A stretch of DNA of 64,000 nucleotides from Chloroflexota bacterium (GCA_965218195.1 OZ244593.1:3061413-3125412), one strand, 5' to 3'; counted from the stretch's first letter, positions 15,945 to 58,258 are shown. The notes: generated from the letters alone by a model not told the origin. Made by a program: numbers and translations.

Positions 15945-16007
15945 TGACCTTGCCCCCGAAAACGCCCTGGATTTTGAGTAGAGTCCGTTCAATGGGAGGA
16001 GACGGAC

Positions 16008-16274
16008 ATGAGACGGAGCAGGTATCGCGAGGAACAGATCATCGGCATCCTCAAAGAGCAGCAGGCGGGGTTGCCAGCCGCAGAGCTCTGCCGCAAGTAC
16101 GGGGTCAGCGGCGCGACGTTTTACAAGTGGCGGTCCAAGTACGGCGGCATGGAGGTATCAGACGCCAGGAAGCTGAAGGGGCTGGAGGATGAGAACCGGC
16201 GCCTGAAGAAGCTGCTGGCGGAATCGATGCTGGATGTGGCGACGCTGCGCGAGCTACTTGCAAAAAACTTCTAA
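16008..16274 (+). CDS. IS3-family transposase OrfA.
   Basis: [40 protein letters not shown] with a C-terminal zipper. Confidence 0.85.
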
Positions 16275-16282
16275 CGCCCAGA

Positions 16283-17119: not shown

Positions 17120-17147
17120 GTGAGGGTAAGTTGGGGGCAGGGTCACC

Positions 17148-36900: not shown

Positions 36901-37044
36901 GCCAGTAGCAGGCAAGACGTTCGTGCAGATGAACTGCTGCGTCAGGTGTCGGCAGATGTGCTCGAATTCGTGATGGGCATTGTGAACGGGCAACTGGGAA
37001 AGAGCAAAGCGGACCTGAGCCTCGACCTCTGAAGGGCTGGCCAT
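33940..37044 (-). CDS. Large (1034 aa), mostly alpha-helical hypothetical protein with no recognisable catalytic motif. Candidate defence-island component.
   Basis: It is a long ORF with consistent codon usage. It is divergently arranged with the 715-aa nuclease-like gene. The N-terminus has an ...GGDQGRDFETF...IAFICTIQADD... segment, which is a possible but unproven nuclease-like core. Confidence 0.6.
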   Translation of the reverse strand: MASPSEVEAQVRFALSQLPVHNAHHEFEHICRHLTQQFICTNVLPATGPVSAGGDQGRDFETFRTYLREELGPHGAFLGLVSEGTIAFICTIQADDLLAKLRLDIKKVCASGHPVHEIRAFTLESVPVGTRHKLETETQASYEGRLEFHDAESIANLLARPEGFWIAERFLSVPAEIRPEAPAIDDDLAAEYVERRRRWRERSFPSPTLGDFVDLKTGLRKAVFHQTARADLPFWLGLVRQLLTIPELPTHIQQRARYELVVTTLRGTGDFRPVDDVAREYLDKSLTESEPARLDDAGTLLMYANGAVRAGMSSLTSAELSDWNDRLTSRIQVLITHETPHRRASLLYTLGFLGLHPALTEADFRDWSDEAHVLEHRDQGGEPSTLPDVSLPDDLVLTDVSRALSAWTELMENLEETPLFPIQSLADLLQMLVPLWSNQAEWRELLDLVDEAVGERSGKNALAARARDRSMKLLRAGRRLDALEELHRAKIDWWSGETVRGSLLAMIIIARLYLELWLPQASKSYALAVAYIAASRADEELMDLVPAGLHMAACADFAAGAWCTATELYELGLVAQHELIEDGIDSERHPEVEDAVMNLAYVSACARIVDSDLAALIGATITRIGTEEIIEGAIDALDANDKDFWESFGDIGLVARPFADLGDVRCIRFSALGTDWTLVAANDVDSVRVAERFAAAAQVMLAALGRDDLCLLQTQINVRIESRRRPSTGVAEQIEWLPSNDGREWVVRLEPISVYDDPSPDEIGIELLTMLTTILREASLLPEADFSARIERAFERGLRHKLSPGRPHDQLAAAFAADTETEIRGRQFSTPWDCREGTYKAHDELRWQDGLGPTYSRDRAEELLHTRYLNLAKSLRLTVVMLGSSEQFRPTADSLRSKGWLDWHILTAIFNIAMNYRFPEDGFNPPSKATQSEMIQAGFRAESATAEPVPIGAFTPDAMNRHRQLAMMALLNHWGLECQQNTPDMPAIERLLAARYGYWDDDVQHDAPFPDSPRSGSDGGLVVIEDVPPPQNEA

Positions 37045-37623: not shown

Positions 37624-39771
37624 GTGAAGCCCAGCACGAAGTCGCGCGAGTGCGCTAGGCGAGACATTGTGTGCGCCCTAGAAGATTTAACGGAGCAGGA
37701 TGGGTTCATATATGCGTTCTGCTTTCTAGTCTTTGAAAGCCTCTGGATTCCACCAGACGCGGTTGCAGATGTCGACTGGTACGAACGTCCCAACAAGGAG
37801 GAACTCTCCTTTCTATTGGGACTTATGGTCAAGCAGCCTATCCGTCTGAATCTCCCGGAAACCGAAGAATCGGTTCAATATCAGCGCAAAGCTGCGCGGC
37901 GCCTATTGAATGAACTCCACGAATCGTACTCGCCGCAGCGTTCGAGCTTTTCGGACTTCGAGGGGAATAACAGCGACCTGACTGCGAACGCCGCCCAAGC
38001 AGTACAAAACTTCCGCGCAAGTGGAGACCACACAGTGGAAGGGGCGTTCTATTCCGGTTCCGGCGCTTTCGACTTCCAATACCTCGACCTCGCAGCCAAA
38101 AGATACCTTCGTGACAGCGCTTGGATGGAGCAACACCTCGGTACGAGCGTGGAGTCAATCATCGAGATTTCTAGGCTCGTGAAGGAGCTACTCAATAGCC
38201 GCATGGTCGACCGCCGAGTACCAGCGACATTCGAAGAGGCGTGCCGCAGAGCTCTTTCGATTCTGTGCATTACCCCTGACGATCTCCCAGCAGCTGACCG
38301 TGGGTCGTTCAACGCCTTGATTGAGCACTTCGCCCTCACGCCCGGCTGCGTCAACTCAGGCCTCGACAGTCTAGGGGCATACAATCAAGCGCTCTCACAC
38401 CCTCTAATACGGCTCTCGCCAGACAGATACTTTCTGCCGATCTACCAAAACCTTCCCTGCTCAATCTATGAGAGTCCCTTCTACTGGATGCTGCAGAACC
38501 CACGTTATAAGGACGAGGGCCTCAAAAACCGGGGAGACGCCACCGAAGAGCTTGCATACGACATGCTGTCGCGCGTATTCGGAGATCAGGCAGTTTTCCG
38601 TGGAGTAGCGGTCTGCAGGGGCGGCCAACGAGTGACCGACATCGACGTTCTCGCGTTCGCAGGAAACAAGGCCATCGTTGTGCAAGCGAAGTCCAAGAAG
38701 ATGACGGAACTATCACGAAGAGGCGACGAGAACAGCGTTCGACGCGATTTTCGCGAGGCAATTCAGCAGGCGTACGACCAAGGGGTTGTCAGTAGGTCAG
38801 CGTTACTTGACGGGGACCACGCGTTCATAGACGAGCGTGGGCAACCTGTCCTCGTCAATCACAAGATCGACGACGCCTACATCCTCTGCCTGACGGGCGA
38901 CTATTACCCAGCCGTCACGGTCCAAGTCGATATTCATCTTCAGAAGCAGGCTCAAGATCCGTACCCAATTGCGTTGAGCATCTTTGACTTGCAGGTCCTT
39001 TGCTTCTACCTAGACGACCCATTCGACTTGCTGTACTACCTGCGTCAGCGTTCGCTTCATGCATCCCATTTTCACTCGGCCTCGGAGATGGCAATGCTGG
39101 GCTTTCATCTGCGCCAGAAGCTCTACCCGAATGCAAAGGTTAGTGGGATGTTCATAGCTTCGGACTACGCCCAGCTGATCGACGAGCACTATCCAATAGC
39201 AACCGGGCACTATCCGATAGCGGATGTTCCGGATCGGCTCCGTCATCAATGGAGAAATGACGAGTTTGAGCGACTAGTCGCTGATGTAAAGTCTTCCCCG
39301 GCTGCGGAACGAACAGATGCGCTGTTTTTCCTATTCGACTTGGCAGGCCCCGGAGCAGACGAACTGTTTGACTTCATTTCAGCGACGAAGCGGAAGACTC
39401 GTCGTGATGGTCGAATACACGATGCATCACTCCCTATGATGACTGGGGATAAGGGGGTTACGTTTGTTTGCTATCCGTCGATAGCCACCGATGTCTGGGC
39501 GCGGCTGCAAGCACATGCAATTGCGCGCAAATACAAGAGTCGCGCAAATGAGTGGTTAGGGCTCGGTTCGTTTGCTGGTAGCGACCGGATGGTGGACATG
39601 GTGTGGTACAGCAAAGAATCGTGGCGTCGAGATCTAGAACTGGAAGCTCTCTTAGCGCAAGGATTTCTTTCGTCTGGAACGTTTGTGAAGGGCAGAAGAA
39701 GGAAGATTGGCAGAAATGAACGCTGCTTTTGTGGAAGCGGGCTCAAATTCAAGAGATGTCACGGCGCATAA
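37624..39771 (+). CDS. Hypothetical protein (up to 715 aa) with a NERD/PD-(D/E)xK-like nuclease core and a C-terminal SEC-C metal-binding motif.
   Basis: The core reads ...ATEELAYDMLSRVFGDQAVFRGVAVCRGGQRVTDIDVLAFAGNKAIVVQAKSKK... (E...D-I-D...Q-A-K). The C-terminus reads RNERCFCGSGLKFKRCHGA. The GC is lower than that of its neighbours. The start is uncertain. Confidence 0.6.
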   Translation: MKPSTKSRECARRDIVCALEDLTEQDGFIYAFCFLVFESLWIPPDAVADVDWYERPNKEELSFLLGLMVKQPIRLNLPETEESVQYQRKAARRLLNELHESYSPQRSSFSDFEGNNSDLTANAAQAVQNFRASGDHTVEGAFYSGSGAFDFQYLDLAAKRYLRDSAWMEQHLGTSVESIIEISRLVKELLNSRMVDRRVPATFEEACRRALSILCITPDDLPAADRGSFNALIEHFALTPGCVNSGLDSLGAYNQALSHPLIRLSPDRYFLPIYQNLPCSIYESPFYWMLQNPRYKDEGLKNRGDATEELAYDMLSRVFGDQAVFRGVAVCRGGQRVTDIDVLAFAGNKAIVVQAKSKKMTELSRRGDENSVRRDFREAIQQAYDQGVVSRSALLDGDHAFIDERGQPVLVNHKIDDAYILCLTGDYYPAVTVQVDIHLQKQAQDPYPIALSIFDLQVLCFYLDDPFDLLYYLRQRSLHASHFHSASEMAMLGFHLRQKLYPNAKVSGMFIASDYAQLIDEHYPIATGHYPIADVPDRLRHQWRNDEFERLVADVKSSPAAERTDALFFLFDLAGPGADELFDFISATKRKTRRDGRIHDASLPMMTGDKGVTFVCYPSIATDVWARLQAHAIARKYKSRANEWLGLGSFAGSDRMVDMVWYSKESWRRDLELEALLAQGFLSSGTFVKGRRRKIGRNERCFCGSGLKFKRCHGA

Positions 39772-40299
39772 GCAGAGCAGAGCGGCCCGCTCGCTCCAAA
39801 CCTCGGAACTCCGTTCGGGAGGGATCTGCGAGGTGGCACTCGGCGACATTCTTCGACGCGTGATTGGCGTAGGCTTCACGAAGCGATGAGATGCAGTCGG
39901 AATACCACCCTATGTCTGCTTAGTGCGGACCGAGAGTCCAGTACCACGCTTCACGGGGACTGTAGGTGATTGAACTAGGCATGCGATCTACTCTTCGGTA
40001 GGCTCGGAAGGAGCGGCGCTTTCAGTTGGCAGGATTCCCAGCTCGACCAGCTCCGTTCGATCGCCCGTCACGTTGTATCGCTGCCACGCGCGGAAGGCGT
40101 GCCGCGCGGCACCGTTCTTCCTCGGGGGTGAGATCGGCCTCCTGAATGCTCGTCGGCTCGGTCCAGCGTGCGATTTGGTCGCTGTCTTCAGCCATGAGTC
40201 AACGATTTGCACCGTTGCCGCCGTCTAACATTCCTCGCGGACCGGTTTTCGGAAGAAGATCACTGTCCCTTAAACCCCTTGCGACAAGACGTTCTGGGC

Positions 40300-40610
40300 C
40301 AGCTTTCCGGGGCAGGTCAGCGGCAGCCGCCGACTACTACGACATTCGCAACACCTACGACGACCACCGAGAGCTGCTGGCGGCGGGTGTCGACGGCGTC
40401 GTGGTTGCGGTCCAGCACGCCTACCACTACGAGGTCGCCCGCGACGCGCTGGACGCCGGCGTCCATGTGCTAGTCGAGAAGCCGATGACCCTGACCGCGG
40501 CTGACGCCTGGGACCTCGTTGAAAGGGCAAAGAGCAACGGTCTGCACCTGATGGTCGGCTATACCTCCCAGTTCACGCGCCACGCGGATGCGGCGCGCGA
40601 GTCGTCGAGT
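40300..40610 (+). pseudogene. Internal fragment of a Gfo/Idh/MocA oxidoreductase (no N-terminal Rossmann region, truncated C-terminus).
   Basis: YYDIRNTYDDHRELLAAGVDGVVVAVQHAYHYEVARDALDAGVHVLVEKPMTLTAADAWDLVERAKSNGLHLMVGYTSQF matches residues about 60-150 of the family. Confidence 0.55.
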
Positions 40611-40735
40611 TTCTGGAGGTGGGCTACCGCTCGGCAGCTTGCCGGCGCCCGGTCAAGGTAGATTCTCTAATCTAAGCGCGCCGGTTCCCTCAGCAGGACG
40701 GCGGCGTGTTTCCCTGCGACTGAGGAGATTGGTTC

Positions 40736-43107: not shown

Positions 43108-43567
43108 ATGACAACAAACGATCGCATCATTCTCGATCAGGTTCTCGGCCAACGTCGGAGCGAAGTTGACCCAGATGCGGACGACAGTTCTTTTTTCGAG
43201 TTCTTCACCGCAGAGCAGGTTCTGAAGGATTTCGATCTCTCGTATGACGAGATAGAGTCTGGCTTGGTCGGCGACGGGGGCGATGGCGGGATAGACGCGA
43301 TATATCTGCTAGTGAATGGTGGCCTAGTTCAAGAGGACCCGGATTATGGCCGCCTGAGAAAGGACATTGCCATCGATCTGATCATCCTGCAGTCGAAGAT
43401 GCGCGCCGGGTTCCAAGAAACTCCAATCGAACGCTTTCTTACAGTCAGTAGCAACCTTTTTGACCTTTCAACAGAAGCTTCAACTCTTTCCGGCGTTTAC
43501 AATGAACGCCTTATAGAGTCAATGCAGCGTTTTCACGGCCTCTATCAAAAACTCGCCGCTTCGTTTC
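43108..43567 (+). pseudogene. N-terminal about 150 aa of an AIPR-family (abortive infection phage resistance) protein, truncated by IS3 copy 2.
   Basis: DRIILDQVL...SSFFEFFTAEQVLKDFDLSYDEIESGLVGDGGDGGIDAIYLLVNGGLVQEDPD...IDLIILQSK matches the AIPR N-terminal pattern. The ORF runs straight into the IS end at 43568. Only about 400 bp remain beyond the IS. Confidence 0.55.
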
Positions 43568-44768
43568 TGACCCTGCCCCCAACTTACCCTCACTCATAAG
43601 TAGAATCTTTTCAGGTTATGGCCCCAATTGGGGCGGGCTGCAAACTGGTTGGGTGTGAGCCCATCCAGGCTCGTGTGCGGGCGTGTTGTGTTGTAGTCGT
43701 ACCTCCATTCCGCGATGATCCGCCGCGCTTCGGCCAGGCCGGCGAAGAGATGTTGGTTGAGGCACTCGTCGCGCAGGCGGCCGTTGAAGCTCTCGACAAA
43801 GCCGTTTTGCATGGGCTTGCCCGGTGCGATGTAGTGCCAGCCAACGCCGCGTTCCTGCTGCCAGCGCAGGATAGCGTTTGAGGTGAGCTCGGTGCCGTTG
43901 TCGCTGACCAGCATGCGGGGGCGGCCCCGCAGCTCGACGATGCGGTCCAGCTCCCGAGCCACGCGGACGCCAGACAGCGATGTGTCGACGACGAGGGCGA
44001 GGCACTCGCGGCTGAAGTCGTCCACCACCGCCAGGATGCGGAACCGCCTGCCGTCGGCCAATGCATCCGCGACGAAATCGAGCGACCAGCGCTGGTTGCG
44101 GTTCCAGGGGAGCAGCAGCGGGGCACGCGTGCCGAGCGCCCGCTTGCGCCCGCCTCGCTTGCGCACCGTGAGCCGTTCCTCGCGATAGATGCGATAGAGC
44201 TTTTTATGATTGAGCCGGATGCCTTCCCTGGCCAGCAGGATGTGCAGACGGCGGTAGCCGAACCGTCGGCGCTGCTCGGCCAATTCCCGCAACCGCTTGC
44301 GGATGCCGGCGTCGTCCGGCCGCCTCGATTCATAGCGCTAAGTCTTCGGATCCATCCCGACAAGAGCGCAGGCACGGCGCTGCGAGTGACTAGTCTCCGT
44401 CATCGCCCAGGCCGCGGCCTTCCTCCGCAATCTGGGCGTTAGAAGTTTTTTGCAAGTAGCTCGCGCAGCGTCGCCACATCCAGCATCGATTCCGCCAGCA
44501 GCTTCTTCAGGCGCCGGTTCTCATCCTCCAGCCCCTTCAGCTTCCTGGCGTCTGATACCTCCATGCCGCCGTACTTGGACCGCCACTTGTAAAACGTCGC
44601 GCCGCTGACCCCGTACTTGCGGCAGAGCTCTGCGGCTGGCAACCCCGCCTGCTGCTCTTTGAGGATGCCGATGATCTGTTCCTCGCGTTACCTGCTCCGT
44701 CTCATGTCCGTCTCCTCCCATTGAACGGACTCTACTCAAAATCGAGGGCATTTTCGGGGGCAAGGTCA
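43568..44768 (-). mobile_element. IS3-family element copy 2 (1201 bp, about 98-99% identical to copy 1), inactivated by two nonsense mutations.
   Basis: The ends are the same as copy 1. orfA has TAT to TAA (..SR*R.. at 44685 region; copy 1 has SRYR). orfB has TAC to TAG (KT*R at 44330 region; copy 1 has KTYR). No target-site duplication is visible. Confidence 0.8.
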
Positions 44769-45163
44769 CTGGCTAGAGAGAAATTCCTTTCGTTGATCAC
44801 TGATCTGAACATAGGCGGCAAGCCGTTGGGAACAATTCAAGTTGAGAGAGACCTTTTGATTGAACAGCTTCATTCAACGTATCGCGGTGCTCCCAATACT
44901 ACGTCTCGGGCATATGAAAAAGCACAGAAGGCTCTTAAGCGGGATGAAGAAATGACATTTTCTGATGACGAGATCGACGCATTTCTACCAAACGAACTTA
45001 GAAGAAGCTAACGACGCCCTGCTGCGCCATCTCTACTCTCAACTTGAGTCGGGCGCGAGCAACGTTTCAAGGACTTGCACCGGAACGACGGTTGACCGCT
45101 TTGCAAATCCCTTACGCCCTCGACAACTAGAACCACTAAGTAGCTGAATTGTTGCGGTCGGCC

Positions 45164-47989
45164 TTACAAACGCCGGTTAGACACCACGGGTTCTGAGGCT
45201 AAGAGGTCGCGGAGCTTGCTCAGATTGGGCAGTGCCAGGATTTCGGAGATTCCGTCGTCCAAGGACTGCCGCGCCGGGCAATGCGCCATACCCGGCAGGC
45301 GTTCGAACTCGGCTTCAGCCAGTTGGTCGAACAGGTCCGACAGGCCGTGAAGCCGTGAGGTCGAAATTTCCCGCAGGTCCAGGACGGGCAGTTCTGAGAG
45401 ATCGGCCTTTTTCATGGCGACCCAGCCGCCTTCCGTGCTGGTCCGCTGGGCCAGAATGGTCAACAGGCCAAGGCTGGAATTCAGCCAAACCGCCAGCGCC
45501 TTCTCATGCGATACGACTTCAACCCGGACGGGCCACCAGACGTTTGAAAGGACTCGCATTTTGGACTTCATGGCGACGACTCTGGCGGTGTCGAGCCGCA
45601 GCCGTTCGGCGACGAGGAGTCGACCGGATTGCCGCCAGAGGCGTTCACCGTAACCTGGCTTTTGTCCGCCTTTTGGCCGTATCAATGGTGACAGATAAAC
45701 GTCAGGTGAGCATATGAGAGACCTCCGTTGCTCCGTATCGTGTCCCTCGACCATCGGGTAAGCAGTCGGAGAACTGGTCCTACTATATCCGTCGACGAGC
45801 CGACGTCTGTCGGGGCCGATTTGACCGAGCTCACCGAGCCGGTACAGCGCAATGTTGGCGGTATCTTCCTCACCCGGTACCCACACTACGCCGTCGTCGA
45901 GCAGGCTGAGGGCGCAGCGGGTTACATCGGCGCGAGCGAACTGCACGCCTGACCATTTCTTTCCCGCGAACTTCGATTCGGGAATCGAAACCATTTCGCC
46001 GACGTGCCGGCCGTCCACTTCCAGCAGCGCCGCGCCCGTTCCCTCGAGATTCGCCGGCGTCGTGGTGGCGATGGCCTGAGCCATCCCGGGCACATCCGAC
46101 ACGCCGTCCGGGTTCCGCCAGAGGTTGACGAAGGTGCTGCGACGCTCAACATTGACGTGTTTCTCAGGGCGGCGCGTAGCAATAAGCAGCGCCTCGGAGA
46201 GGTCGGTGCTGTCCGAAAAGTTCCAGCGCAGCGGATCGTGCGACGTAATCACCATGTCGAGGGCGAAGTCATGCTCGATTAGGGCGCGCGTCTGCCGCCA
46301 CGAGGGGCCGGTACATACGGTGGCGGGCAGCACCAGCGCCAGGCGTCCCTCGCCGGGCCGCAGCCTGGGGACCGCCGCCGCAACGAATGCGGCGCCGAGT
46401 CCGGCGGTGGCTGATGCCTGCCTTGATCTAAGGCGACGCGACAGCTCGCTTTGAAGTTTTCGCCGGTCCGCTGCGGGCAGGCTGCCGAACAGCAGGTTGC
46501 CGCCCACGGAGCGCGTGAATGGCGGGTTCATTATCGCCAGGTCCAAGTCCGGCAGCGTGGCGGTCGCACCCTCTTCCACACCCCGAGAACCGCCGCCGGA
46601 CACCCTTCCGGGTTCCCTGGTGGCTACTCGCATCTCCTCGGCGGACAGCGCGAATTGCACCGGTACGTGGGTCTCTCCCAGGAATTCCAGCGAGCCCAGA
46701 GACACCTTCGAGCCTTCAGCCCCCAGGGGCATTACGTAGAGATTCATGCGGTCGAACTGTATGTCCGGGTTCAGCATCGCCAGGCTGGTGGCGGCGAAAT
46801 GTACGGCGGAAAGCTGAACGTCGTAGCCGTGCAGGGCCTGCTCCACCATGGCTTTGTGCAGCTCGGGGGCGTTTTGGCCGCCGGCGTCGGAGTGCCGGCG
46901 CTCGACCTCGGCGGCCACCGCCATCAGCAAGGTTCCAGTGCCGCAAGCCAGGTCGGCCACGTTGAGGGATGCCGGAAATTCGTGGTCGCTCCAGTCGACG
47001 TGCGAGGGCCAGTCGTGAAACACCAGCCGGGAAAGCAGCGTGGCCGCCGGCACCGACGTGTAATAGGCGCCGGTGAACTTGGCGTCGGTCAAGAGCGTAT
47101 GGAACAGCCGCCCGGATAAATCGTGCCCCGCCAAATGACGCGTGTCTTCCATAGCCCTGACCAACGGTACGATGACCGGCGTCCGGATCTCGTCCGGCCC
47201 GTCGCCGAGCACGTCAAGGATGTTGGACGCCAACTCGAAGACCGGCACGTAGTCGATGTCGTCGCAGATGGAGCGCCAGGCCCAACGGAGTCCGGGAAGG
47301 CCATGCCCCAACGCTTCGCCGACGGTCGGAACGTCCTCATTAGCGGCGGCGAGACGGTCCTGGAAAGCGAGAGCGTTGAAGAGCACCAAACACCCGATGC
47401 GCAGGGCCGCGGCGCGGTCCCTTTCGTGATCGGTGCTGGCGATAATGTCGGCGATGCGACGGGATATCCGGGCGTGTTTGGCTATTTGTTGCGCCGCCTG
47501 TTCCAGCCCGTACCCAACGGCGGTGGCGGCGGCCACCACCCGGTCCACGCCTTCCAGTTCCAATAGAAGGGTACGCAGGTGATCGGCAAGCTCGGCTGCC
47601 GACCCTCGCCGGACGCGGCGCTCTGGCGCAATCCCGCCACGAGAGCCATGCAGCCACCATTGGAGGTCAGTGGCGGCCTCGAGGTTCGAGCGTGTGTTCT
47701 CCGTGTACTTGAGCCTGTCGGGATAGAGAACGCCAATCATTCCAAGAGCTTCGGGGAAATCTTGCAGACGTTCTTCGAGCTGCTCTTCCAGGAGGCTCGC
47801 CGCCCCCTCCCACTTGCATTCCAGGATGACTAGGTCGCCGCTTCGCAGCTCGACCCGGACATCGGGCGCGCCCTTCCGGCTGCGGCGCTCCCCCCTGGCC
47901 GATATGCCGCGCTCACGGAGCAACTCGGCTAGAAGGACATTTACGCCTTCCTCACGAATAGTTTCGGGATCGCTCTGTCGAGTGGCCAT
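45164..47989 (-). CDS. Fused restriction-modification-type protein (941 aa): an N-terminal PD-(D/E)xK nuclease motif plus a gamma-class N6-adenine DNA methyltransferase (type IIG-like).
   Basis: The nuclease core is GAPDVRVELRSGDLVILECKWEG (D...E-C-K). MTase motif I is VADLACGTGTLL. Motif IV is IMNPPFTRS. The long C-terminal region is a presumed target-recognition domain. Confidence 0.7.
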   Translation of the reverse strand: MATRQSDPETIREEGVNVLLAELLRERGISARGERRSRKGAPDVRVELRSGDLVILECKWEGAASLLEEQLEERLQDFPEALGMIGVLYPDRLKYTENTRSNLEAATDLQWWLHGSRGGIAPERRVRRGSAAELADHLRTLLLELEGVDRVVAAATAVGYGLEQAAQQIAKHARISRRIADIIASTDHERDRAAALRIGCLVLFNALAFQDRLAAANEDVPTVGEALGHGLPGLRWAWRSICDDIDYVPVFELASNILDVLGDGPDEIRTPVIVPLVRAMEDTRHLAGHDLSGRLFHTLLTDAKFTGAYYTSVPAATLLSRLVFHDWPSHVDWSDHEFPASLNVADLACGTGTLLMAVAAEVERRHSDAGGQNAPELHKAMVEQALHGYDVQLSAVHFAATSLAMLNPDIQFDRMNLYVMPLGAEGSKVSLGSLEFLGETHVPVQFALSAEEMRVATREPGRVSGGGSRGVEEGATATLPDLDLAIMNPPFTRSVGGNLLFGSLPAADRRKLQSELSRRLRSRQASATAGLGAAFVAAAVPRLRPGEGRLALVLPATVCTGPSWRQTRALIEHDFALDMVITSHDPLRWNFSDSTDLSEALLIATRRPEKHVNVERRSTFVNLWRNPDGVSDVPGMAQAIATTTPANLEGTGAALLEVDGRHVGEMVSIPESKFAGKKWSGVQFARADVTRCALSLLDDGVVWVPGEEDTANIALYRLGELGQIGPDRRRLVDGYSRTSSPTAYPMVEGHDTEQRRSLICSPDVYLSPLIRPKGGQKPGYGERLWRQSGRLLVAERLRLDTARVVAMKSKMRVLSNVWWPVRVEVVSHEKALAVWLNSSLGLLTILAQRTSTEGGWVAMKKADLSELPVLDLREISTSRLHGLSDLFDQLAEAEFERLPGMAHCPARQSLDDGISEILALPNLSKLRDLLASEPVVSNRRL

Positions 47990-48391
47990 TGTCGAAATTG
48001 CCTGTCAAAAAGAGTAGATGGACTCTACGTCAGTCAAGGTTTCGCGGTCGGCTTCGATACTCAACCTTTCGCGAACGGCGCGCAAGTCTATTCGTACGGC
48101 AACATCCGCGCTGGGCGGCTTAGGTGACGGGGCGCGTATATCAGTTTCGTTCCGGGGAACGTCCGCTCGGCGATGCCCGGAGCGGCGATTCTAGGGCTGG
48201 GCTGGTTCCCCCTTTTGTACCTTCGGGGGGCGTCCGCGCTTAGGCGGCGAGAACAGACGAGAAAGCGAGGCAATCAGCCAGGGGCGGCGGTTACATAGTG
48301 GACCTCCGGCTGATGCTCAGCTACGCGGATGCGCTCGATTATGGAAATCATGCGATCGGTAGGACTCCCTATCGGCTGCGCCGATTACAAG

Positions 48392-49198
48392 TCAGGCTTC
48401 CAACTGCCGCGAATGCTTCAAGGCGAAATCCTCTTCCGGGGAACGGACGAGCCTCTTTCGGCCAATGACCGCAAAATAGAACAGACGGACGGCAAACAAG
48501 ACCGCGCAGCCATAGATGCCTACCCTGTAGTCCGGGTTCATTAAGAGAAAGGGTAATGTGACGGGCGCGATTGCGGCGGGCGCAATCGCGCCCGCGTTAC
48601 CCAGGGGGCTGATATACGGACGCTCGATCTTCGGAAACCGCTTCCGCAGTCGGACAAAGCAGATCATCTGCATGACGTAGGCGATGACCGCGCCGAAAAC
48701 CGCCATGTTCAACAGCACGGCCCCAACCGGCACTCCTTTGCCGAGCCAACTATCGCCAAACTCAATCAGGAGAGCTACCAGATACCCGATCATGGAGCCT
48801 GCAATCAACGCCAAGTGTGGCGTCTTGGTTTTGGATTGAGTCACCGAAAGCCGCTGTGGGAAGTAACCTGCCCTCGACAACCAGTAGATGCGTCGGCCGT
48901 AGGCATAGATGATCGCGTGAAAACTAGCGACCGGGCCGGCGACCGCTGCCAGCCCCAAAACCGATGCGCCAAGTCCTCTCCCAAAGATTGTCTTGAAAGC
49001 CAGTAGCAGCGGTTCGTCGGACGCTCCAACTGCGGACGCTCCCGGCGCGACGCCGCCCTTGACAAGTCCGGTGGCGGTCAGGAAGTGGCGGACCACGGTG
49101 GTGATGTTGGCTTCGGGTTCGGCCCGGTTGTGCCGCCGCAAAATCTCAGCGGCCGCGTCCGCGCAGATCGGATCGTTGAGATCGATCTGCTTGGACAT
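48392..49198 (-). pseudogene. C-terminal portion of an APC-superfamily amino-acid/ethanolamine-type permease. The N-terminal half is missing.
   Basis: Typical terminal TM segments (...IIYAYGRRIYWLSRAGYFPQ...VIAYVMQMICFVRLRKRFPKIERPY) are present. Only about 200 aa of the roughly 450-aa family length remain, and the first 60 aa are unrelated. Confidence 0.5.
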
Positions 49199-49441: not shown

Positions 49442-50671
49442 TCAGGCGGCGGCCCGCACCGCCTTCGCCTCGTCCCGCAGTCGCTTCACCCTTTCGGCTA
49501 AGTCGCGGACTCGATCTAGAACCTCGTCGAGCCTCCCCGTCAGATCGAGCGCCGCTACGTCCAGCCGCTTGTTGGAGTGCCTGACACGGTAGGTGCCCTC
49601 GTTCGCCTCGCCCTGAGCGTAGATCAGCAGTCCGCCCGGCAAATCTAGCGCGGTGACGTATGCGAGAAGCTGGTACAAGTCCGTGTTGGGCACTCTCTCG
49701 CTGGTGATGTTCTTGTATTTAGCGTCCCCCACGAATAGGCAGGATCGTCCGTCCCACCAGGTCAGGTCGGGCCTGAGTCGTATGCCGTCCTCCTTATCGA
49801 GACTGTCTATGGCCTTCTCGAGGAACACGCGGTCGGAGACTTGCAACGCCTCCCGCAGCGCCTGTGTCACGAACTCCTGGAAGACGTCGTTCATGTCCAT
49901 CAGGAACCCGGATGCACGCACCTCACCACGACCGGACTCATACGCGCTGTGCCGCAACACGAGCCGCGACAGCGCCACCACCTCGCGATAGTGCCCGTTC
50001 AGTCGGTCGAATCGGACCTCCGGCAACGCGTTAGGCGCAAACTCGACCAGCGAGACGTTGGCGAGCATCCCCGCAATCCGCCCCAGCTCTTTCCGCGCCG
50101 CAGGCGATCGCAGCCGCATCCGGCCCAGCCGGTAGACCGCCGCCTTCACCAGCCGGTTCGCCAGGACGTCGTCCGTGAACTCGTCGTACCTCACTTCGAC
50201 CGGCACCGCGATGCCGAATCTCCGCCGTATCTGCTCGTCGAACCTGATCCGACCGCGTACGGTTTGCAGAGCCTCCTCCTCCACAACGTATCCGTGCAAA
50301 AGCCCGCGCGAGAACGCCCTTCTGGCGGCGGAGACAAGCGCAAGCGCCAGCACATCCGGCATTGCATATTCACGCGGGTAGTCGAACTGTTGGCGCTGAG
50401 GCTTGAACTTACTCATCGCGTAGCACGCAAGCGAGAGCAGCTGTGGAATCTCGATCTTTGGCTCGATCAGCACCGACAGGTCGCCAATCTCGATCGCGCC
50501 CACGGTCGAACCGGGAGTCACTTGGTAGGCTCCCTCCTTGCCCACGACGGGCTGGATTGTGAGAGATGGCAACGCCTGCAGCAGCACATCGTGCTCGGCG
50601 ACCGCGAGCTCATGCTCGCTGGTGGCGTACTCCTTCAGGTCGATTTCACGCATCGGTCGGGCCGTCGTCAT
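49442..50671 (-). CDS. McrC-like PD-(D/E)xK endonuclease subunit (pair 1).
   Basis: It is 409 aa with the motif LFVGDAKYK (D-x-K-Y-K, typical of McrC). It sits immediately downstream of, and overlapping, the McrB-like gene. Confidence 0.75.
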   Translation of the reverse strand: MTTARPMREIDLKEYATSEHELAVAEHDVLLQALPSLTIQPVVGKEGAYQVTPGSTVGAIEIGDLSVLIEPKIEIPQLLSLACYAMSKFKPQRQQFDYPREYAMPDVLALALVSAARRAFSRGLLHGYVVEEEALQTVRGRIRFDEQIRRRFGIAVPVEVRYDEFTDDVLANRLVKAAVYRLGRMRLRSPAARKELGRIAGMLANVSLVEFAPNALPEVRFDRLNGHYREVVALSRLVLRHSAYESGRGEVRASGFLMDMNDVFQEFVTQALREALQVSDRVFLEKAIDSLDKEDGIRLRPDLTWWDGRSCLFVGDAKYKNITSERVPNTDLYQLLAYVTALDLPGGLLIYAQGEANEGTYRVRHSNKRLDVAALDLTGRLDEVLDRVRDLAERVKRLRDEAKAVRAAA

Positions 50672-53006
50672 CGGCTCTGTCGGTATCGCCTGCTTCCCAT
50701 AGCTTTTCGAGGTCGAACTCGCCGAGGCGGTCGCCTTGCCCGAAGAGCAGCTCCTCGATGTACGGAAGCACGCTGTGCTTCCAGATGCGCCTGACGGCGT
50801 CCTCGTCCAGGTCCTCCTTCATGAAGTAGCTCGGCCCTATCGCGGCGTGCCGGTCGTCCCTCAACTTCTCGTTGGCTCGGTCTACGACATCGGCCACCCA
50901 CGCCATGCCCGGCGCCTTCTCCCTCAGCCAGCGCCGTAGCACCCCTTTGATGGGTTCCTCGTCCGGGTGGAACTCGACGAAGTTGAATCGGCGACGCAGC
51001 GCCAGATCGACCAGCGCGATCGAGCGGTCGGCCGTGTTCATCGTGCCGATGATGTAAAGGTTGTCCGGCAGCTCGAAAGTCTCCCCACTGTTCCTCTGGT
51101 ATTGGAGGCGTATCGCTTCGTCACGGTACTCCAGCAGGAAATACAGTTCCCCGAACACCTTGGCGACGTTGCCGCGATTGATCTCGTCGATCAGGAGGAA
51201 ATGCCTCTCGTCCGGCTCTCCCCGTGCACGCCTGCCGGCCTCAAGCAGCGGCCCGTCCGTCAGCTCGAACCCGGGCTGACCGCCTCTCAGTGTGGGGCGG
51301 AAGCCCTGCACGAAGTCTTCGTAAGCATAGGATGGATGTAACTGCACGAGATCGACCCGATCGTCCGCTCCCGCGAGATGCCTCGCTAACTTCCGCGCAA
51401 CATAGGTCTTGCCCGTTCCAGGCGGTCCCTGGAAGATGACCTGCTTCTTGTCCTCCAGCAGTTTCTCGATGTTCCCAAGGAAGTCCGCGGTGAGATGGAG
51501 TTCAGCCGCTAGCGCATCGAGGTCATCGGGCGGTGGGGGAGGCGGTGAAATGATGGTCCCTGGCATTCCCCAGACCACGGACTGCGCGTCAAGTCGATGG
51601 CGTAGCTCAAGCCCCCGCTCAGCCGCCTCGTCGATGAAGCGGTCGAGGAATATGAGCGCATGCTCGTAGACGGCAGCCTCGTCCGCCTCGCCCTCGGGTC
51701 GACGGTATTCCGTGCTGTCGTATGCCTTGTTGAACACGCCAACCCGGTACGGCGGAAACTGCTCGACGTCCAGCCCCATCAGCAGCACCGAAATCAAATT
51801 CGTGCGGTTCCCGGTCGCGCCTCTCAACGCAGAGCGTGGGACCCCGCTGCTGAAGCCGCGAATCCGTTCCGTGATCGTCGAGTCGTCTCGCGACCACAAC
51901 GCCTCGAGCTCGCTCAAGGCTTGTTCCGAATAGTCAGCGCACCACCGCGTGAAATCACTCTGAAGCTGCCAGGCAATGGGGTGGCCCGGTCTGGTCTTCA
52001 GCGCGCGCTTCAACACCTCCGGCCAGTCTTCGGCGCGGGAGACAACGGCATTACGCGCAGAGGCGAGGTCCCGACCCATTTCAAGCTTGTAGCCGATCTC
52101 CTCAATCTCCATTCGACCGGAGTCGACGTAGCTCCTTGCACGCTCGACAAACTGATCCCAAGGGTCGGATGTCGAAGACCGCCAACGCTTCGATACCTCG
52201 CCGTCGTCGTAGAAGTCGAAATCCCTGCCTAGCTCGTCCTCAAGCCCTCGACGTATCTGTACCAGTTTGCGGTCAGGGTCCTCGGTCGGCTCTCTAACGA
52301 GATACGCGAATCTCTCGGTGATCTTGTTCTTGTGGTCGCCGCTCAGGATTGCCTCGAACGTGTCGCCGTGGACGAGATGCAGTAGTGTCGCTCGCGCAAC
52401 GGCGCGGCTGTTCCGGGGACCGGTCCGCAGCGGGCCGCGCCAATCCACATCCATGACGAACTTCTTGAACTCCCAAGCAGCTTCCGGGTCCCCGGAGTCG
52501 AGCAAGCGCTCGACCGGCCCTCGCTCCTTCCACTGCTCCACGAACTCGATCAAGTAGCCAGGCAGAAGTCCGGGACTCTGACTGAAATGTCGATTTGCAC
52601 TGACGAGGCCGGGTCTAAGGCCGTCGACGCAGTCATCCGGTATTGCCATAGGTAGCGGCGACCATCCCAGCACCCGTTCGATTTCTTGCCTCTTCCATGT
52701 GCCTTTGGCGGCTTGCCGAGCAACGAGATAGGAGGCGTAAAGAACTTCTCCCATCAACTGGTAGACCTCGGCTGGACTGCCTGTCAATAGCCGCTCCAAG
52801 CTCGCAAAGAACGCGTGCTTCGATTGTCCGTTCCACTCTCCCGGTCTATCCAAAAACCGCCCGCGCAACTCACTGAGCCACTGCCTCGACCAGATCGGTT
52901 CCCCCACCGTGAAGAGCGAGTCGTCGGATCTCAACGCGCGGTCGACCCATGTGCTCGCGGCAGCGTAGACCGTCTCTCGCCCGCCTCCAGTCTTTCTGCC
53001 ACTCAC
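50646..53006 (-). CDS. McrB-like AAA+ GTPase (786 aa) with an about 480-aa N-terminal domain of unknown type (pair 1).
   Basis: It has QVIFQGPPGTGKTYVA (P-loop), LLIDEINRGNVAKVFGEL, and NLYIIGTMNTADRSIALVDLALRRRF (the McrB signature MNTADRS plus the sensor). Confidence 0.8.
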   Translation of the reverse strand: MSGRKTGGGRETVYAAASTWVDRALRSDDSLFTVGEPIWSRQWLSELRGRFLDRPGEWNGQSKHAFFASLERLLTGSPAEVYQLMGEVLYASYLVARQAAKGTWKRQEIERVLGWSPLPMAIPDDCVDGLRPGLVSANRHFSQSPGLLPGYLIEFVEQWKERGPVERLLDSGDPEAAWEFKKFVMDVDWRGPLRTGPRNSRAVARATLLHLVHGDTFEAILSGDHKNKITERFAYLVREPTEDPDRKLVQIRRGLEDELGRDFDFYDDGEVSKRWRSSTSDPWDQFVERARSYVDSGRMEIEEIGYKLEMGRDLASARNAVVSRAEDWPEVLKRALKTRPGHPIAWQLQSDFTRWCADYSEQALSELEALWSRDDSTITERIRGFSSGVPRSALRGATGNRTNLISVLLMGLDVEQFPPYRVGVFNKAYDSTEYRRPEGEADEAAVYEHALIFLDRFIDEAAERGLELRHRLDAQSVVWGMPGTIISPPPPPPDDLDALAAELHLTADFLGNIEKLLEDKKQVIFQGPPGTGKTYVARKLARHLAGADDRVDLVQLHPSYAYEDFVQGFRPTLRGGQPGFELTDGPLLEAGRRARGEPDERHFLLIDEINRGNVAKVFGELYFLLEYRDEAIRLQYQRNSGETFELPDNLYIIGTMNTADRSIALVDLALRRRFNFVEFHPDEEPIKGVLRRWLREKAPGMAWVADVVDRANEKLRDDRHAAIGPSYFMKEDLDEDAVRRIWKHSVLPYIEELLFGQGDRLGEFDLEKLWEAGDTDRADDDGPTDA

Positions 53007-53412: not shown

Positions 53413-54624
53413 TCAGGCTACGGTCCGAAGCACCCTTGCCGCATCCCGCAGTGCCTTTACCCTGATCGCCACTTCCCGGACTCTTGCGAGAACCTCGTCG
53501 AGCGTCTCCGAGAGGTCGAGACCTGCGACTTCCAATCGCTTGCCGGAGTGTCTCACGCAGTAGGTTCCCGCTTCGGCCTCGCCCTGCGCATATATCAACA
53601 ACCCGCCCGGCAGGTCGAGCGCAGTGACGTAGGCCAGCAGCTGGTATAAGTCCGAGTTCGGCACTCTTTCGCCGGTCAGGTTCTTATATTTCGCATCGCC
53701 CACGAATAGGCAGGATCGCCCTTCCCACCATGTCAGATCGGGCTTGAGTGGTACGGCGCCTTCTTCATCAAGGCTGTTTATCATCTTCTCGAGGAACACT
53801 CGGTCCGAGAGCCGCAAGACCTCCCTCAGCGCCTGTGCGACGAACTCTTGGAATACCACGTTCATGTCCATCAGGAATCCGGGGGCGCGCACTTCCCCGC
53901 GATCGGCCTCATACGCGCTGTGTCGCAGGACGAGCCGCGAGAGCGCTACCACCTCACGGTAGTGCTCGTTGAGCCGGTCGAATCGGAGCTCCGGCACCGC
54001 GTTGGGCGGATACTCGACCACCGAGACGCTGTCGAGCATGCCCGCTATACGCCTCAACTCCCGACGCGCCTCCCTCCATCGCAACCTCATCCGGACCAGC
54101 CGTTCCACCGCCGCCTTCACAAGCCGGTTCGCCAGTATGTCCTCGGTAAACTCGTCGTACCTGACCTCGACCGGCACGCTGACGCCGAATCTACGGCGTA
54201 TCTGCTCGTCGAACCGGATTCGCCCTCGCACCGTGTGGAGTGCCTCTTCCTCCACTACGTAGCCGTGGAGCAGGCCGCGCGAAAACGCTCGCCGGGCGGC
54301 AGACGCGAGGGCTAGTGCCAGCACATCCGGCAGCGCATACTCGCGCGGGTAGTCGAACTCCTCACGGCGCATTTGAAGTTTGCCCATCACGTAGCACACG
54401 AGCGAGACCAACTGGGCAATCCCGATCTTCGGCTCGATCAGCACGGATAGGTCGCCGATCTCGATCGCACCAACCGTGGAGCCGGGTGTGATTCTGTAGG
54501 TTCCTTCTCTGCCCATCACAGGCTCGATCGTCAGACTCAGCGGTGCCTCCTGTAGAGCATCACGCTGAGCGATCGAGAGCGCATGTTCGCTGGATCTGTA
54601 CTCTGTTAGGTTGAGTTCATCCAT
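53413..54624 (-). CDS. McrC-like endonuclease subunit (pair 2), a diverged paralog of 49442-50671.
   Basis: It is 403 aa with the same LFVGDAKYK motif. It is collinear with pair 1 and I estimate about 75% identity by eye. Confidence 0.75.
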   Translation of the reverse strand: MDELNLTEYRSSEHALSIAQRDALQEAPLSLTIEPVMGREGTYRITPGSTVGAIEIGDLSVLIEPKIGIAQLVSLVCYVMGKLQMRREEFDYPREYALPDVLALALASAARRAFSRGLLHGYVVEEEALHTVRGRIRFDEQIRRRFGVSVPVEVRYDEFTEDILANRLVKAAVERLVRMRLRWREARRELRRIAGMLDSVSVVEYPPNAVPELRFDRLNEHYREVVALSRLVLRHSAYEADRGEVRAPGFLMDMNVVFQEFVAQALREVLRLSDRVFLEKMINSLDEEGAVPLKPDLTWWEGRSCLFVGDAKYKNLTGERVPNSDLYQLLAYVTALDLPGGLLIYAQGEAEAGTYCVRHSGKRLEVAGLDLSETLDEVLARVREVAIRVKALRDAARVLRTVA

Positions 54625-56989
54625 CGCTCAGCCCGTGGACGTCGCCAGGTCCGTCGGGGTCTTTTGCTCTCCTCAGGCTCTCTAGGTCGAACTCGCCCAG
54701 CCGGCCGCCTTCCCCGAAGAGACGCTCCTCGATGTACGGCAGCACGCTGTGCTTCCAAATGCGCTGGACAGCGTCCTCGTCGAGGTGGTCCTTCATGAAG
54801 TAGCTCGGCCCAATGGCGGCATGCCGATCGTCCGCGAGCTTCTCATTGGCCCGGTCGACCACATCGGGCACCCATGCCATGTCGGGTGCCTTTTCCCTCA
54901 GCCGCCGGCGCAACACGCCCTTGATGGGCTCTTCGTCCGGGTGGAACTCGATGAAGTAGAACCGGCGGCGCAGCGCCAGGTCCACGAGCGCGATCGAGCG
55001 GTCCGCCGTGTTCATTGTCCCGATGATGTACAGATTGCCGGGTAAGGCGAAGGTCTCTCCGCTGTGTCTCTGATACTGGAGGCGCATCTTCTCTTCGCGG
55101 TACTCCAGCAGAAAGTACAACTCACCGAAGACCTTAGCTACGTTGCCACGGTTGATTTCGTCGATGACCAGGTAGTGCTTCCCTTTATCCCCTCGCGCGC
55201 GCTCGGCGGCCTCAAGCAGCGGACCGTCTATCAACTCGAATTTCAACTCACCGTCCGTCAGCGTGGGACGAATGCCACGCACGAAGTCTTCGTAAGCGTA
55301 GGAGGGATGTAGCTGCACGAGTGTTACCCGGTCCTCTGAGCCCGCCAGATACCTCGCAAGCTCCCGGGCAACGTACGTCTTCCCTGTTCCGGGCGGCCCC
55401 TGGAAGATGACCTGCTTCTTTTCATCAAGCAGTGATTCAATGTTCCCGAGGAAGTCGGCCGTCAGGTAGAGTTCGACAGCGAGCCTTTCGATGCCGTCGG
55501 GCGGAATTGGCGGCGGTACTGGACCGTGCCCTTGCATTCCCCAAATCACAGACTGCGCATCTAGCCGATGGCGCAACTCAAGCTCCCGCTTGGTGGCCTC
55601 GTCGATGAAGCGGTCGAGGAACGCGAGCGCGTGTTCATAAACCGAGGCCTCGTCCTTCTCATCTCGCGGCCGACCGTATCCGGTGCTGTCATACGCCTCA
55701 TTGAACACACCTACCCTGAACGGCGGATACTGTTCGACATCCAGCCCCATCAGGAGCACCGATACCACGTTCGCGCGATTCCCGGTCGCGCCTCTCACAG
55801 CCGAGCGAGGGAGCCCGTTGCTGAAACCGCGAATGCGTTCCACCAGCGTCGAATCGTCTGGCGACCACAACTTGCGCAACGCGCTGCGCGCCTCCTCCGA
55901 GTAGTCGGCGCTCCATCGATTGAAGTCGCTTAGAAGCTGCCATGCTATGGGATGGCCCGTCCTGGTCCTGAGAGCGTGCTTCAGCACGTCTTGCCACCCG
56001 TCGGTTTGGTCGAGAACGGCGCCACGTGCCAGGGCGAGGTCCTGCCCCATTTCGAGCTTGTATTTGATCTCCTCAGGATCCAATCGACCGGAGTCGACGT
56101 AGCTCTTTGCGCTTCCAACAAACACATCCCAACGGTCGGCGGTCGAAGACCGCCAACGCTTCGATACCTCGTCATCGTCGTAGAAGTCGAAGTCCCGACC
56201 CGTTTCAGCCTCAAGTCCCCGGCGAATCTGCGCCAATTGTCGGTCAATGTCATCCGTCCGCTCCGTTACGAGATATGCGAACCTCTCAGCGATCTCGTTC
56301 TTGTGATCGACGCTCAGGATTACCTCGAAACTATCGGGGTGAACCAAATGCAGTAGGGTCGCCTGCTGCATCGCCCGGCGATTCGAGGGACTACTGCGCA
56401 GCGGACCACGCCAATTGACTCTCGCGACGAATTCCTTGAACTCCCAGGCGGCTTCAGCATCCGTGGAGTCGAGCAAGCGGAGGTCTGCCCCTCGCTCCTT
56501 CCATTGCTCCACAAACTCGATGAAGTAGCCGAACTGGAGTCCGAAGTTGGCTGTGAAGGACGGTCCCGGGTGTACGAGGCCAGGCGCTAACCCGTCGACG
56601 CAGTCATCCGGCACGCTCGTAGGCGTCGGCGACCATCCGAGCACTTGCTCAATGCGTTCCCTCTTCTGTCTCTCGCTCATTCCACCTCGCCCTCGGTGAA
56701 AGACGACGAGATACGCGACGTAAATCACTTCTCCCATCAACTGGTATACCGGGGCTGGACTACCCTCCAAGAGCCTCTCTAACTTCCCGAAGAAGTCGCT
56801 TCTCGGTAGCCGGTTCCACTCGTCGGGTCGGTCCAAGAAACGACTGCGTAGCTCACCAAGCCACCGCGTCGACCAGACCAGCTCCCCGGGCGTGAAGAGC
56901 GAGTCGTCGGCTCTCAAAGCGCGGTCGACCCATCTGCGGGCAGCCGCGTAGACCCGCTCCTGCCCGTCTCCCGCCTTTGTGCTACTCAC
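54617..56989 (-). CDS. McrB-like AAA+ GTPase (790 aa), a diverged paralog of 50646-53006 (pair 2).
   Basis: It has the same P-loop, DEINRGN and MNTADRS motifs. Its N-terminal about 480 aa are about 65-70% identical to pair 1 by eye. Confidence 0.8.
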   Translation of the reverse strand: MSSTKAGDGQERVYAAARRWVDRALRADDSLFTPGELVWSTRWLGELRSRFLDRPDEWNRLPRSDFFGKLERLLEGSPAPVYQLMGEVIYVAYLVVFHRGRGGMSERQKRERIEQVLGWSPTPTSVPDDCVDGLAPGLVHPGPSFTANFGLQFGYFIEFVEQWKERGADLRLLDSTDAEAAWEFKEFVARVNWRGPLRSSPSNRRAMQQATLLHLVHPDSFEVILSVDHKNEIAERFAYLVTERTDDIDRQLAQIRRGLEAETGRDFDFYDDDEVSKRWRSSTADRWDVFVGSAKSYVDSGRLDPEEIKYKLEMGQDLALARGAVLDQTDGWQDVLKHALRTRTGHPIAWQLLSDFNRWSADYSEEARSALRKLWSPDDSTLVERIRGFSNGLPRSAVRGATGNRANVVSVLLMGLDVEQYPPFRVGVFNEAYDSTGYGRPRDEKDEASVYEHALAFLDRFIDEATKRELELRHRLDAQSVIWGMQGHGPVPPPIPPDGIERLAVELYLTADFLGNIESLLDEKKQVIFQGPPGTGKTYVARELARYLAGSEDRVTLVQLHPSYAYEDFVRGIRPTLTDGELKFELIDGPLLEAAERARGDKGKHYLVIDEINRGNVAKVFGELYFLLEYREEKMRLQYQRHSGETFALPGNLYIIGTMNTADRSIALVDLALRRRFYFIEFHPDEEPIKGVLRRRLREKAPDMAWVPDVVDRANEKLADDRHAAIGPSYFMKDHLDEDAVQRIWKHSVLPYIEERLFGEGGRLGEFDLESLRRAKDPDGPGDVHGLSDG

Positions 56990-57091: not shown

Positions 57092-58096
57092 TTGATAATT
57101 CCGCAAACCAGAGCAAGGGTCGTGTGGATGTTTTCCTCTCCGGAGTCCGCCATGCCTACCGCTCAATCTACCCTGCCCACTGTCTTCTCTGGCTCTGCTT
57201 CCGGCTGGGATGCCTCGCTCTACGCCTTCCTGGCCGAGAAGCAACGCCGCTCGGGCTCGCTCCGTACTCCTGACTCTTACTACCGCACTCTCCGACACTT
57301 CTTCGGCTCTACCCAGAAGTCGCCGAATCAAGTGTCTGCTCAGGATGTCTTTTCGTTCGCCCATGGGGTCGGCCTCTCGGGGCGTGAACCGTCTCCCACC
57401 ACCGTCGGCGCTCGCATCTGCTGTCTCTCTTCGTTCTATAAGTTCCTCATCCGGCTGGATCTGCTTGCCTCCAATCCCTGCGATCCGGTGGAACGCCCCA
57501 AGCCTCGTCCCAGCGCACCAAGCGGCCTCTCCGCTGCACAGGTGCAGCAGCTCCTTCAGGTCATCCCCGATACCGTCAAGGGCAGGCGTGACCTCGCCAT
57601 CGTCCTCACCCTGGTCCTAACCGGCAGACGCAGGTCCGAAGTCGTCAACCTGACTGCCGGCGATATCGCCTTCGATGACTCGGCCGCCTTCTACCGCTAC
57701 GTCGGCAAGGGCGGTCTGCGCGGCCGCCGGGAACTCCCTCGTCCGGCCCTCGCCGCCATCGTTCGGTCACTCGCCGATGTCGGCAAGGACATCCACTCCA
57801 TGCAGCCCGCCGAGTCGCTTTGGCAAGCGGGCGCTGGTCCCACCGGCGTCTCCAGCGCCACCTTCTACAACCGCTTCCGCACCTACCTCCAGAAGGCCGG
57901 TCTGCCTCCTTCCGGCGTCCACGTCCTCCGCCACTCCGCCGCCAAGCTCCGCCGCGATGTCGGCGAGTCGGTTGAGTCGGTAAGCCAGTTCCTCGACCAC
58001 AGTTCGCTCGCGGTCACCACCACCTACCTCCGCAGACTGGAAGGGCAGCGCGATGCCGCCTGGCAGGGCGTCGCAACCGTTATCGGCGTGAGCTAG
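57092..58096 (+). CDS. Tyrosine-type site-specific recombinase/integrase (XerC/D-like).
   Basis: It has the C-terminal catalytic pattern ...LTGRRRSE...HVLRHSAAKLRRDVG...LDHSSLAVTTTYL (R...HxxR...Y). The start may be at 57131 or 57152. Confidence 0.8.
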   Translation: MIIPQTRARVVWMFSSPESAMPTAQSTLPTVFSGSASGWDASLYAFLAEKQRRSGSLRTPDSYYRTLRHFFGSTQKSPNQVSAQDVFSFAHGVGLSGREPSPTTVGARICCLSSFYKFLIRLDLLASNPCDPVERPKPRPSAPSGLSAAQVQQLLQVIPDTVKGRRDLAIVLTLVLTGRRRSEVVNLTAGDIAFDDSAAFYRYVGKGGLRGRRELPRPALAAIVRSLADVGKDIHSMQPAESLWQAGAGPTGVSSATFYNRFRTYLQKAGLPPSGVHVLRHSAAKLRRDVGESVESVSQFLDHSSLAVTTTYLRRLEGQRDAAWQGVATVIGVS

Positions 58097-58258
58097 CTCG
58101 CCCCGCCTACGGCGTTCTTCGCCTCGCAGGTCTAGAATCTGCTCCGGTCGGGCGGCAGCGCATTCCCCTTCCACCAATGCACGTATCACTGCCGTCCCGC
58201 CTTATGGGCGGATCGGTGTCTACGCTGTTGGCCTCTACCATCAGGATGCCGGTCCGCC

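Follow-up and report, generated by a model that had tools for sequence, protein, structure and literature searches.

Does a single gene, standing without partners in the genome of an uncultured member of the Dehalococcoidia, encode a complete restriction-modification enzyme? The question is raised by an open reading frame (ORF) on the minus strand, at positions 45164..47989 of a 64,000-nucleotide stretch from Chloroflexota bacterium (GCA_965218195.1, OZ244593.1:3061413-3125412; the whole stretch is called the window hereafter), which an earlier note made from the sequence alone had described as a solitary, type IIG-like fusion of a nuclease and a methyltransferase. The analysis leads to the answer that the gene probably does encode a self-contained, single-chain restriction-modification enzyme of type IIG-like build. 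The domain architecture, the conserved catalytic motifs, purifying selection, a solitary context, and fold similarity to BpuSI, TaqI, CamA, and HsdS were all observed.

A conserved gene with four modelled domains

Translation of the window gave an uninterrupted reading frame of 941 codons plus a stop codon, starting with ATG and containing the motifs that had been quoted for it (the nuclease motif, ADLACGTGTLL, and NPPF). The frame is complete and specifies a single-polypeptide nuclease-methyltransferase that aligns over its full length with relatives of ~941 aa. A word-indexed search scored >2300 homologs, the best 120 clusters of which were 75-94% identical and nearly all ~941 aa long, and when one genome of each species was scanned, 117 loci proved to encode a family gene, all in metagenome-assembled genomes of Dehalococcoidia/Chloroflexota and at 63-81% amino-acid identity. 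Eighty species-level loci were scored as having full-length copies, and shortened or split copies occurred at ~9-10 of 80 loci. The ratio of non-synonymous to synonymous substitution rates (dN/dS) in codon alignments was ~0.15 overall. Given this ratio, the number of homologs, and the identity of the copies in related species, the ORF is judged to be genuine rather than a random reading frame. All four domains described below are under purifying selection (dN/dS 0.22 for the nuclease, 0.20 for the connector, 0.10 for the methyltransferase, and 0.16 for the target-recognition domain, TRD).

The AlphaFold2 model used here was built from a 116-sequence alignment that included relatives at 34-42% identity (predicted local distance difference test, pLDDT, 84.4; predicted template modelling score, pTM, 0.85) and superseded an earlier run on close homologs only, in which the methyltransferase core was poor (pLDDT 58.9). 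In this model, the chain is laid out as a nuclease head, a helical connector, a methyltransferase, and a TRD. Its best whole-chain Foldseek match was the type IIG enzyme BpuSI (PDB 3s1s; E 5.5e-17). In the BpuSI structure, a PD-x15-ExK nuclease (E21, D60, E76, K78) is followed by a helical connector, then by a methyltransferase (293-579) and a TRD (580-876; PMC3185434); the order and sizes of these core domains correspond to the four domains of the target. The resemblance does not extend to sequence: no significant match to BpuSI/Eco57I-type enzymes was obtained, identity in the structural alignment was 13%, and the target has no Eco57I Pfam match. The TRD of BpuSI is, moreover, interrupted by an extra domain, and the BpuSI locus has two extra methyltransferase genes (PMC3185434), whereas the target gene is solitary. 

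The N-terminal, PD-(D/E)xK nuclease-like domain (aa 1-130; 47600..47989, minus strand) was modelled mostly at block-mean pLDDT 80-91, with an alpha-beta-beta-beta-alpha-beta topology (helix 13-26; strands 30-33, 44-47, and 53-60; helix 61-77; strand 83-89). D43 lies where the second strand begins, and the third contains E57-x-K59, as is the arrangement in a PD-(D/E)xK core. Together with E34, these residues form the putative catalytic constellation E34 ... P42-D43 ... E57-C-K59 (PD-x13-ExK), read from the translation at 47813..47890 on the minus strand: ERRSRKGAPDVRVELRSGDLVILECK. The sole PDB structure matched by the N-terminal profile was AF1548 (1y88), at a marginal E of 0.004-0.018, and this alignment sets D43 and E57-x-K59 exactly onto 'IDV...IECKF'. 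AF1548 was deposited as a hypothetical protein without known function, and I take it to be an Mrr-like PD-(D/E)xK nuclease domain.

Conservation of these positions reaches deep into the family. D43 and E57 were invariant in all 116 divergent family sequences and P42 was kept in 107 of them, while E34 was invariant in a domain-only alignment (A4) and present in 51/52 sequences of alignment A2, so that the invariance of E34, D43, and E57 spans sequences only ~27-40% identical. Position 59 turned out to be dimorphic: the target has K59, which is invariant in 44 aligned close relatives (75-94% identity), and across the 116 sequences K was found 34 times, E 79 times, and D 3 times. The D/E/K triad on which the earlier note had staked its nuclease call is thus intact on alignment. 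The apparent 'alternative N-termini' suggested by split HMMER hits were rejected, most of these proteins having the same nuclease head with a variable insert.

The head is followed by a connector (aa 131-285; 47135..47599, minus strand) that was modelled as all-helical, with eight helices across 131-283, and that has a helical analogue in BpuSI (PMC3185434). The next domain is a Rossmann-type, gamma-class N6-adenine DNA methyltransferase (aa 286-625; 46115..47134, minus strand). Its S-adenosylmethionine-binding motif I, ADLACGTGTLL (46925..46957, minus strand), and its catalytic motif IV, NPPF (46517..46528, minus strand), were read from the translation, and D346, G350, and G352 of the former and N488-P489-P490 of the latter were invariant in both divergent alignments, as was D390. 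Among 52 divergent relatives, 46 matched the Pfam family N6_Mtase, 22 matched Eco57I, and 7 matched MmeI_Mtase; the family profile matched HsdM, BREX PglX, BsaXI, BseCI, and BpuSI.

A fold search with the methyltransferase and the C-terminal domain together retrieved CamA, BseCI, TaqI, and HsdS-type recognition domains, and the C-terminal domain searched separately matched specificity subunits, namely HsdS 1yf2 (10.0), the PacII S subunit (8.9), and S.BsaXI (8.6). On account of these fold matches, the C-terminal ~315 aa of the model (aa 626-941; 45167..46114, minus strand), a mixed alpha/beta domain, are assigned as a TRD of the TaqI/CamA/HsdS type, at fold level only. A C-terminal specificity domain had been proposed earlier at about 450 aa: such a domain is present, but the methyltransferase fold runs to ~aa 625, and the larger figure had taken in the second half of the methyltransferase. 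M.TaqI, CamA, and M.BseCI are likewise gamma-class methyltransferases with a C-terminal TRD, but they have neither a nuclease head nor a helical connector. 

The features of a type IIG enzyme are accordingly found together in the target: nuclease and methyltransferase in one polypeptide (from the AlphaFold2 model and the Foldseek match to BpuSI), intact PD-(D/E)xK residues (E34, D43, E57, and K59), methyltransferase motifs I and IV, and, at fold level only, a DNA target-recognition domain. The type IIG-like label given earlier agrees with the model topology, the BpuSI match, and the TRD fold matches. Assignment to the MmeI family (type IIL; MmeI 5hr4, DrdV 7lo5) was rejected, with 0/5 MmeI Pfam domains found in the target. 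A different gene of the window, at 17837-20674, matches all five (MmeI_N, MmeI_hel, MmeI_Mtase, MmeI_TRD, and MmeI_C), MmeI_C scoring 21 bits and the other four reaching or exceeding the 27-bit cut-off, and is a true MmeI-family member. The two proteins had been called unrelated in sequence, which BLASTP bore out (E = 0.086), and hhalign covered the methyltransferase core only (147 columns, probability 95%).

For such an enzyme, I infer DNA methylation in vivo, endonuclease activity, a recognition sequence, a cleavage distance, and the modification of one or both strands along the following lines. The C-terminal domain would bind a short DNA sequence, in which the adjacent gamma-class methyltransferase, using S-adenosylmethionine, would convert adenine of the host DNA to N6-methylated adenine. 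On DNA whose site has no methyl mark, such as that of an invading phage or plasmid, the N-terminal PD-(D/E)xK domain would cut, presumably at some distance from the recognition site, because the nuclease domain is held on a helical connector. Since no second methyltransferase is linked to the gene, the host would probably be protected by this single methyltransferase, as in MmeI-type enzymes. The defence-island setting of the gene, with two McrBC pairs, an MmeI-family gene, and recombinases, supports a restriction-modification function.

Alternative readings of the fusion

The strongest competing explanation is that of an orphan N6-adenine DNA methyltransferase, in which the PD-(D/E)xK-like head would not cut and would instead be a DNA-binding, regulatory, or oligomerisation module, the role of the protein lying in epigenetic control or in protection from other restriction systems; I regard it as unlikely, though as a serious contender. 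It draws on several findings that weigh against a restriction-modification enzyme. Some family members (P0150, P0159, P0168, P0171, P0180, P0183, and others) are ~750-790 aa long, begin with Met at the connector, and have no nuclease head, so that the methyltransferase-TRD module is evidently able to exist alone. Position 59 is not kept as K, most distant relatives having E in its place, and catalytic motifs, including acidic residues, are degenerate in a few members (P0169 and P0197). Relatives are borne by plasmids in Sulfuricystis and Aminobacter, and by haloarchaeal tailed viruses; methyltransferases on plasmids and viruses often serve self-protection, and the Aminobacter plasmid and the haloviruses would be settings of that kind. 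The Aminobacter plasmid relative adjoins a zincin-like metallopeptidase gene. The TRD is under steady purifying selection, and no diversification of it was detected between co-resident paralogs.

Other points against the favoured reading concern annotation and precedent. The target protein reaches no curated threshold in Pfam or NCBIfam, its PADLOC matches are weak (E 6e-4 for the type IIG model), and sequence support for the nuclease fold lies in the marginal range given above for AF1548. A PDB search with the single target sequence gave no match, and an exact look-up of the window protein returned no record. In Haloferax volcanii, a nuclease fragment of 219 aa (HVO_A0006) and a 732-aa protein (HVO_A0237) have been catalogued together as a split type IIG system with no detectable methylation, and deletion of the genes left methylation motifs unchanged (PMC5867850); the head-less family forms recall this pair, to which they are likened by description only.

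Against a non-cutting head stands, first of all, the invariance of E34, D43, and E57 down to ~27-40% identity, together with the purifying selection on the head itself (dN/dS 0.22). An E-x-E third position, as in the relatives with E59, is an active variant of the BamHI type. The gene also lies within a defence island.

A further explanation is that the protein belongs to a defence system made up of several genes (as PglX in BREX, as MAD2 in MADS, or in a type I or type ISP-like system) and would need a translocase, PglZ, or other partners, linked or unlinked. This is very improbable. Weak hidden Markov model matches to MAD2 and PglX models speak for it, as do the two McrBC pairs 1.5-9 kb off, but the scores fall far under the cut-offs (33.5 vs 720 bits for MAD2, and 15.3 vs 900 bits for PglX), and both assignments were rejected, no BREX genes neighbouring the target in the window or in 80 loci and, for MADS, no neighbours being conserved. 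Type ISP (LlaGI/LlaBIII) was rejected as well: neither the Pfam scan nor the model showed an ATPase or helicase domain in the protein, and the 155-aa linker consists of helices only. 

When the ORFs of 81 loci were clustered, no neighbour gene emerged as conserved, the largest other cluster being a housekeeping short-chain dehydrogenase/reductase (SDR) in 20 loci, and three distant relatives are also solitary, lying amid hydrogenase-maturation, polysaccharide, or other unrelated genes. The closest relative, at 94% identity, has other neighbours too. The solitary status noted earlier is borne out by these comparisons.

That the protein is not a DNA enzyme at all, and instead an RNA or protein (N5-glutamine) methyltransferase using NPPF chemistry and fused to unrelated domains, is scarcely credible, given that the C-terminal domain separately matches HsdS subunits, that relatives match the DNA methyltransferase families N6_Mtase, Eco57I, and MmeI_Mtase, and that the protein is fused to a nuclease-fold head.

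A large unnamed family

An exhaustive search of 1.84 billion representatives (clusters at 50% identity) returned 2948 matches, of which 929 had E <= 1e-30. Relatives of full length, 27-44% identical, are spread across many phyla and include one archaeon; where they bear names, these are 'hypothetical protein', 'N-6 DNA methylase', or 'DNA methyltransferase family protein'. A true distant homolog is gp38 of HRTV-10, a haloarchaeal tailed virus (975 aa; hhalign probability 100%, E 1.9e-42, 817 columns), the match covering the helical region and the methyltransferase as well as a PD...EAKW motif at the N-terminus. It differs from the target in its low identity (~23% by tblastn, query aa 8-606), in a divergent C-terminal region, and in being virus-borne, and the depositors named it 'type IIG restriction modification enzyme' as an annotation rather than from experiment.

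Two family members are present in some genomes: L048 (9983-16028), L054 (6766-12817), OY764162.1 (L029/L040), and OZ247430.1 (L018/L057). Those of L054 are tandem close paralogs, 80-92% identical, those of L048 are tandem deep paralogs, ~24-39% identical by domain, and in the other genomes the copies are dispersed. TRD swapping between co-resident paralogs was considered and rejected as inconsistent, the TRD being more divergent in L029/L040 and less divergent in L054, and the L048 copies being a deep paralog pair. Synonymous sites were saturated among the family genes of sponge-associated and marine Dehalococcoidia.

This large unnamed family (~930 clusters at 50% identity), with an AF1548-like head and a K/E dimorphism, may have been long kept in sponge-associated and marine Dehalococcoidia in a domesticated role, in which epigenetic marking of a conserved site would be combined with a controlled nuclease, or as a selfish addiction module. 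Either would fit better than fast-turnover restriction the saturated synonymous sites, purifying selection that includes the TRD, up to two copies per genome, and a gene that is always alone in varied contexts, a pattern unusual for restriction genes. I consider this proposal decidedly unlikely as a whole.

The mechanism class of the single-chain restriction-modification enzyme favoured here is well known, and novelty lies only in a sequence family that has no curated profile and no characterised member. If active, the family would be a new sequence lineage of such enzymes, which are useful as reagents and as scaffolds for specificity engineering. It would then also deserve its own profile in Pfam, NCBIfam, or PADLOC, since the target falls short of every curated threshold in Pfam and NCBIfam, its PADLOC matches are weak, and its relatives go under "hypothetical protein" or "N-6 DNA methylase". 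Within the window, the target rounds off a dense defence island of this uncultured member of the Dehalococcoidia.

The island around the gene

In nearly all loci, nucleotide homology to the window ends at the ORF boundaries. The 94%-identical relative (L087-L089) lies in a comparable island with different neighbours, and the two have in common only the gene, 21 bp upstream, and 151 bp downstream (blastn block 45013-48010). The 3' flank found by blastn only in this relative (45013..45163, minus strand) ends in a terminator-like hairpin at 45010-45031; terminator-like sites were not more numerous than expected by chance, and the flank had no significant secondary structure (z -0.28). A search for direct or inverted repeats on either side of the gene gave short, chance-level matches only. 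The homology block of 3.0 kb, confined to the gene, together with a gene array divergent from a tyrosine recombinase, prompted the idea of an integron cassette, which was rejected: the integrase at 57092-58096 is Xer-like (40.9 bits on the integron-integrase model, whose cut-off is 265), and nothing resembling attC was seen in the structure of the 3' flank.

The island around the target contains the MmeI-family gene, two McrBC pairs, decayed Abi and SLATT genes, IS3 copies, and recombinases. The McrBC pairs, which had been reported earlier and which profile scans confirmed, lie in tandem at 49442-53006 and 53413-56989 on the minus strand; their McrB proteins are 73% identical over the full length, and each has a ~500-aa N-terminal region without a family match. 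The earlier tally for the window of two modification-generating and two modification-dependent functions is correct at the level of annotation. 

A Xer-like tyrosine recombinase and a large serine recombinase (57092-59932, plus strand) show ~81% nucleotide identity to the islands of L087/L088, where the cargo differs and includes Shedu SduA_C, Mrr_cat, GmrSD, and a PIN toxin-antitoxin pair. Conserved recombinases with different cargo suggest a recombinase-associated defence hot spot with swappable content.

An IS3-family insertion sequence of 1,201 bp, with a transposase of HTH_21, rve, and rve_3 domains, is present in two inverted, 99.3%-identical copies, one at 43568-44768, ~0.4 kb 3' of the target, and the other at 15945-17145, a short way upstream of the MmeI-like gene. 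In L080, a copy at 13478-14663 (97.9% identical) is found on the 3' side of the family gene, although the family genes themselves are only 75% identical. A 254-aa ORF at 43611-44375 was discarded as a neighbour gene, being a wrong-frame artefact inside the IS3 element. On either side of this element lie an AbiU-like N-terminal fragment (43108-43599, plus strand; PADLOC E 1.5e-41) and a SLATT_4 C-terminal fragment (44721-45011, plus strand), which judging from their sequences are probably parts of one abortive-infection/effector gene split by IS3. Truncated housekeeping genes were also found, namely the C-terminal half of an ethanolamine/amino-acid permease (48392-49198, minus strand) and part of a GFO_IDH_MocA NAD-binding domain (40146-40661, plus strand); several genes of the island are thus decayed, and the target is intact.

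Between a gene for an LRR/fn3 protein and the target region lie two further ORFs: one of 1034 aa (33940-37044, minus strand) without a Pfam or NCBIfam match, and one of 715 aa (37624-39771, plus strand) whose sole Pfam match is a C-terminal SEC-C motif, with two far-sub-threshold NCBIfam matches to the same stretch. The MmeI-family gene is directly followed by a gene for a DUF4238 protein (20711-21577, plus strand).

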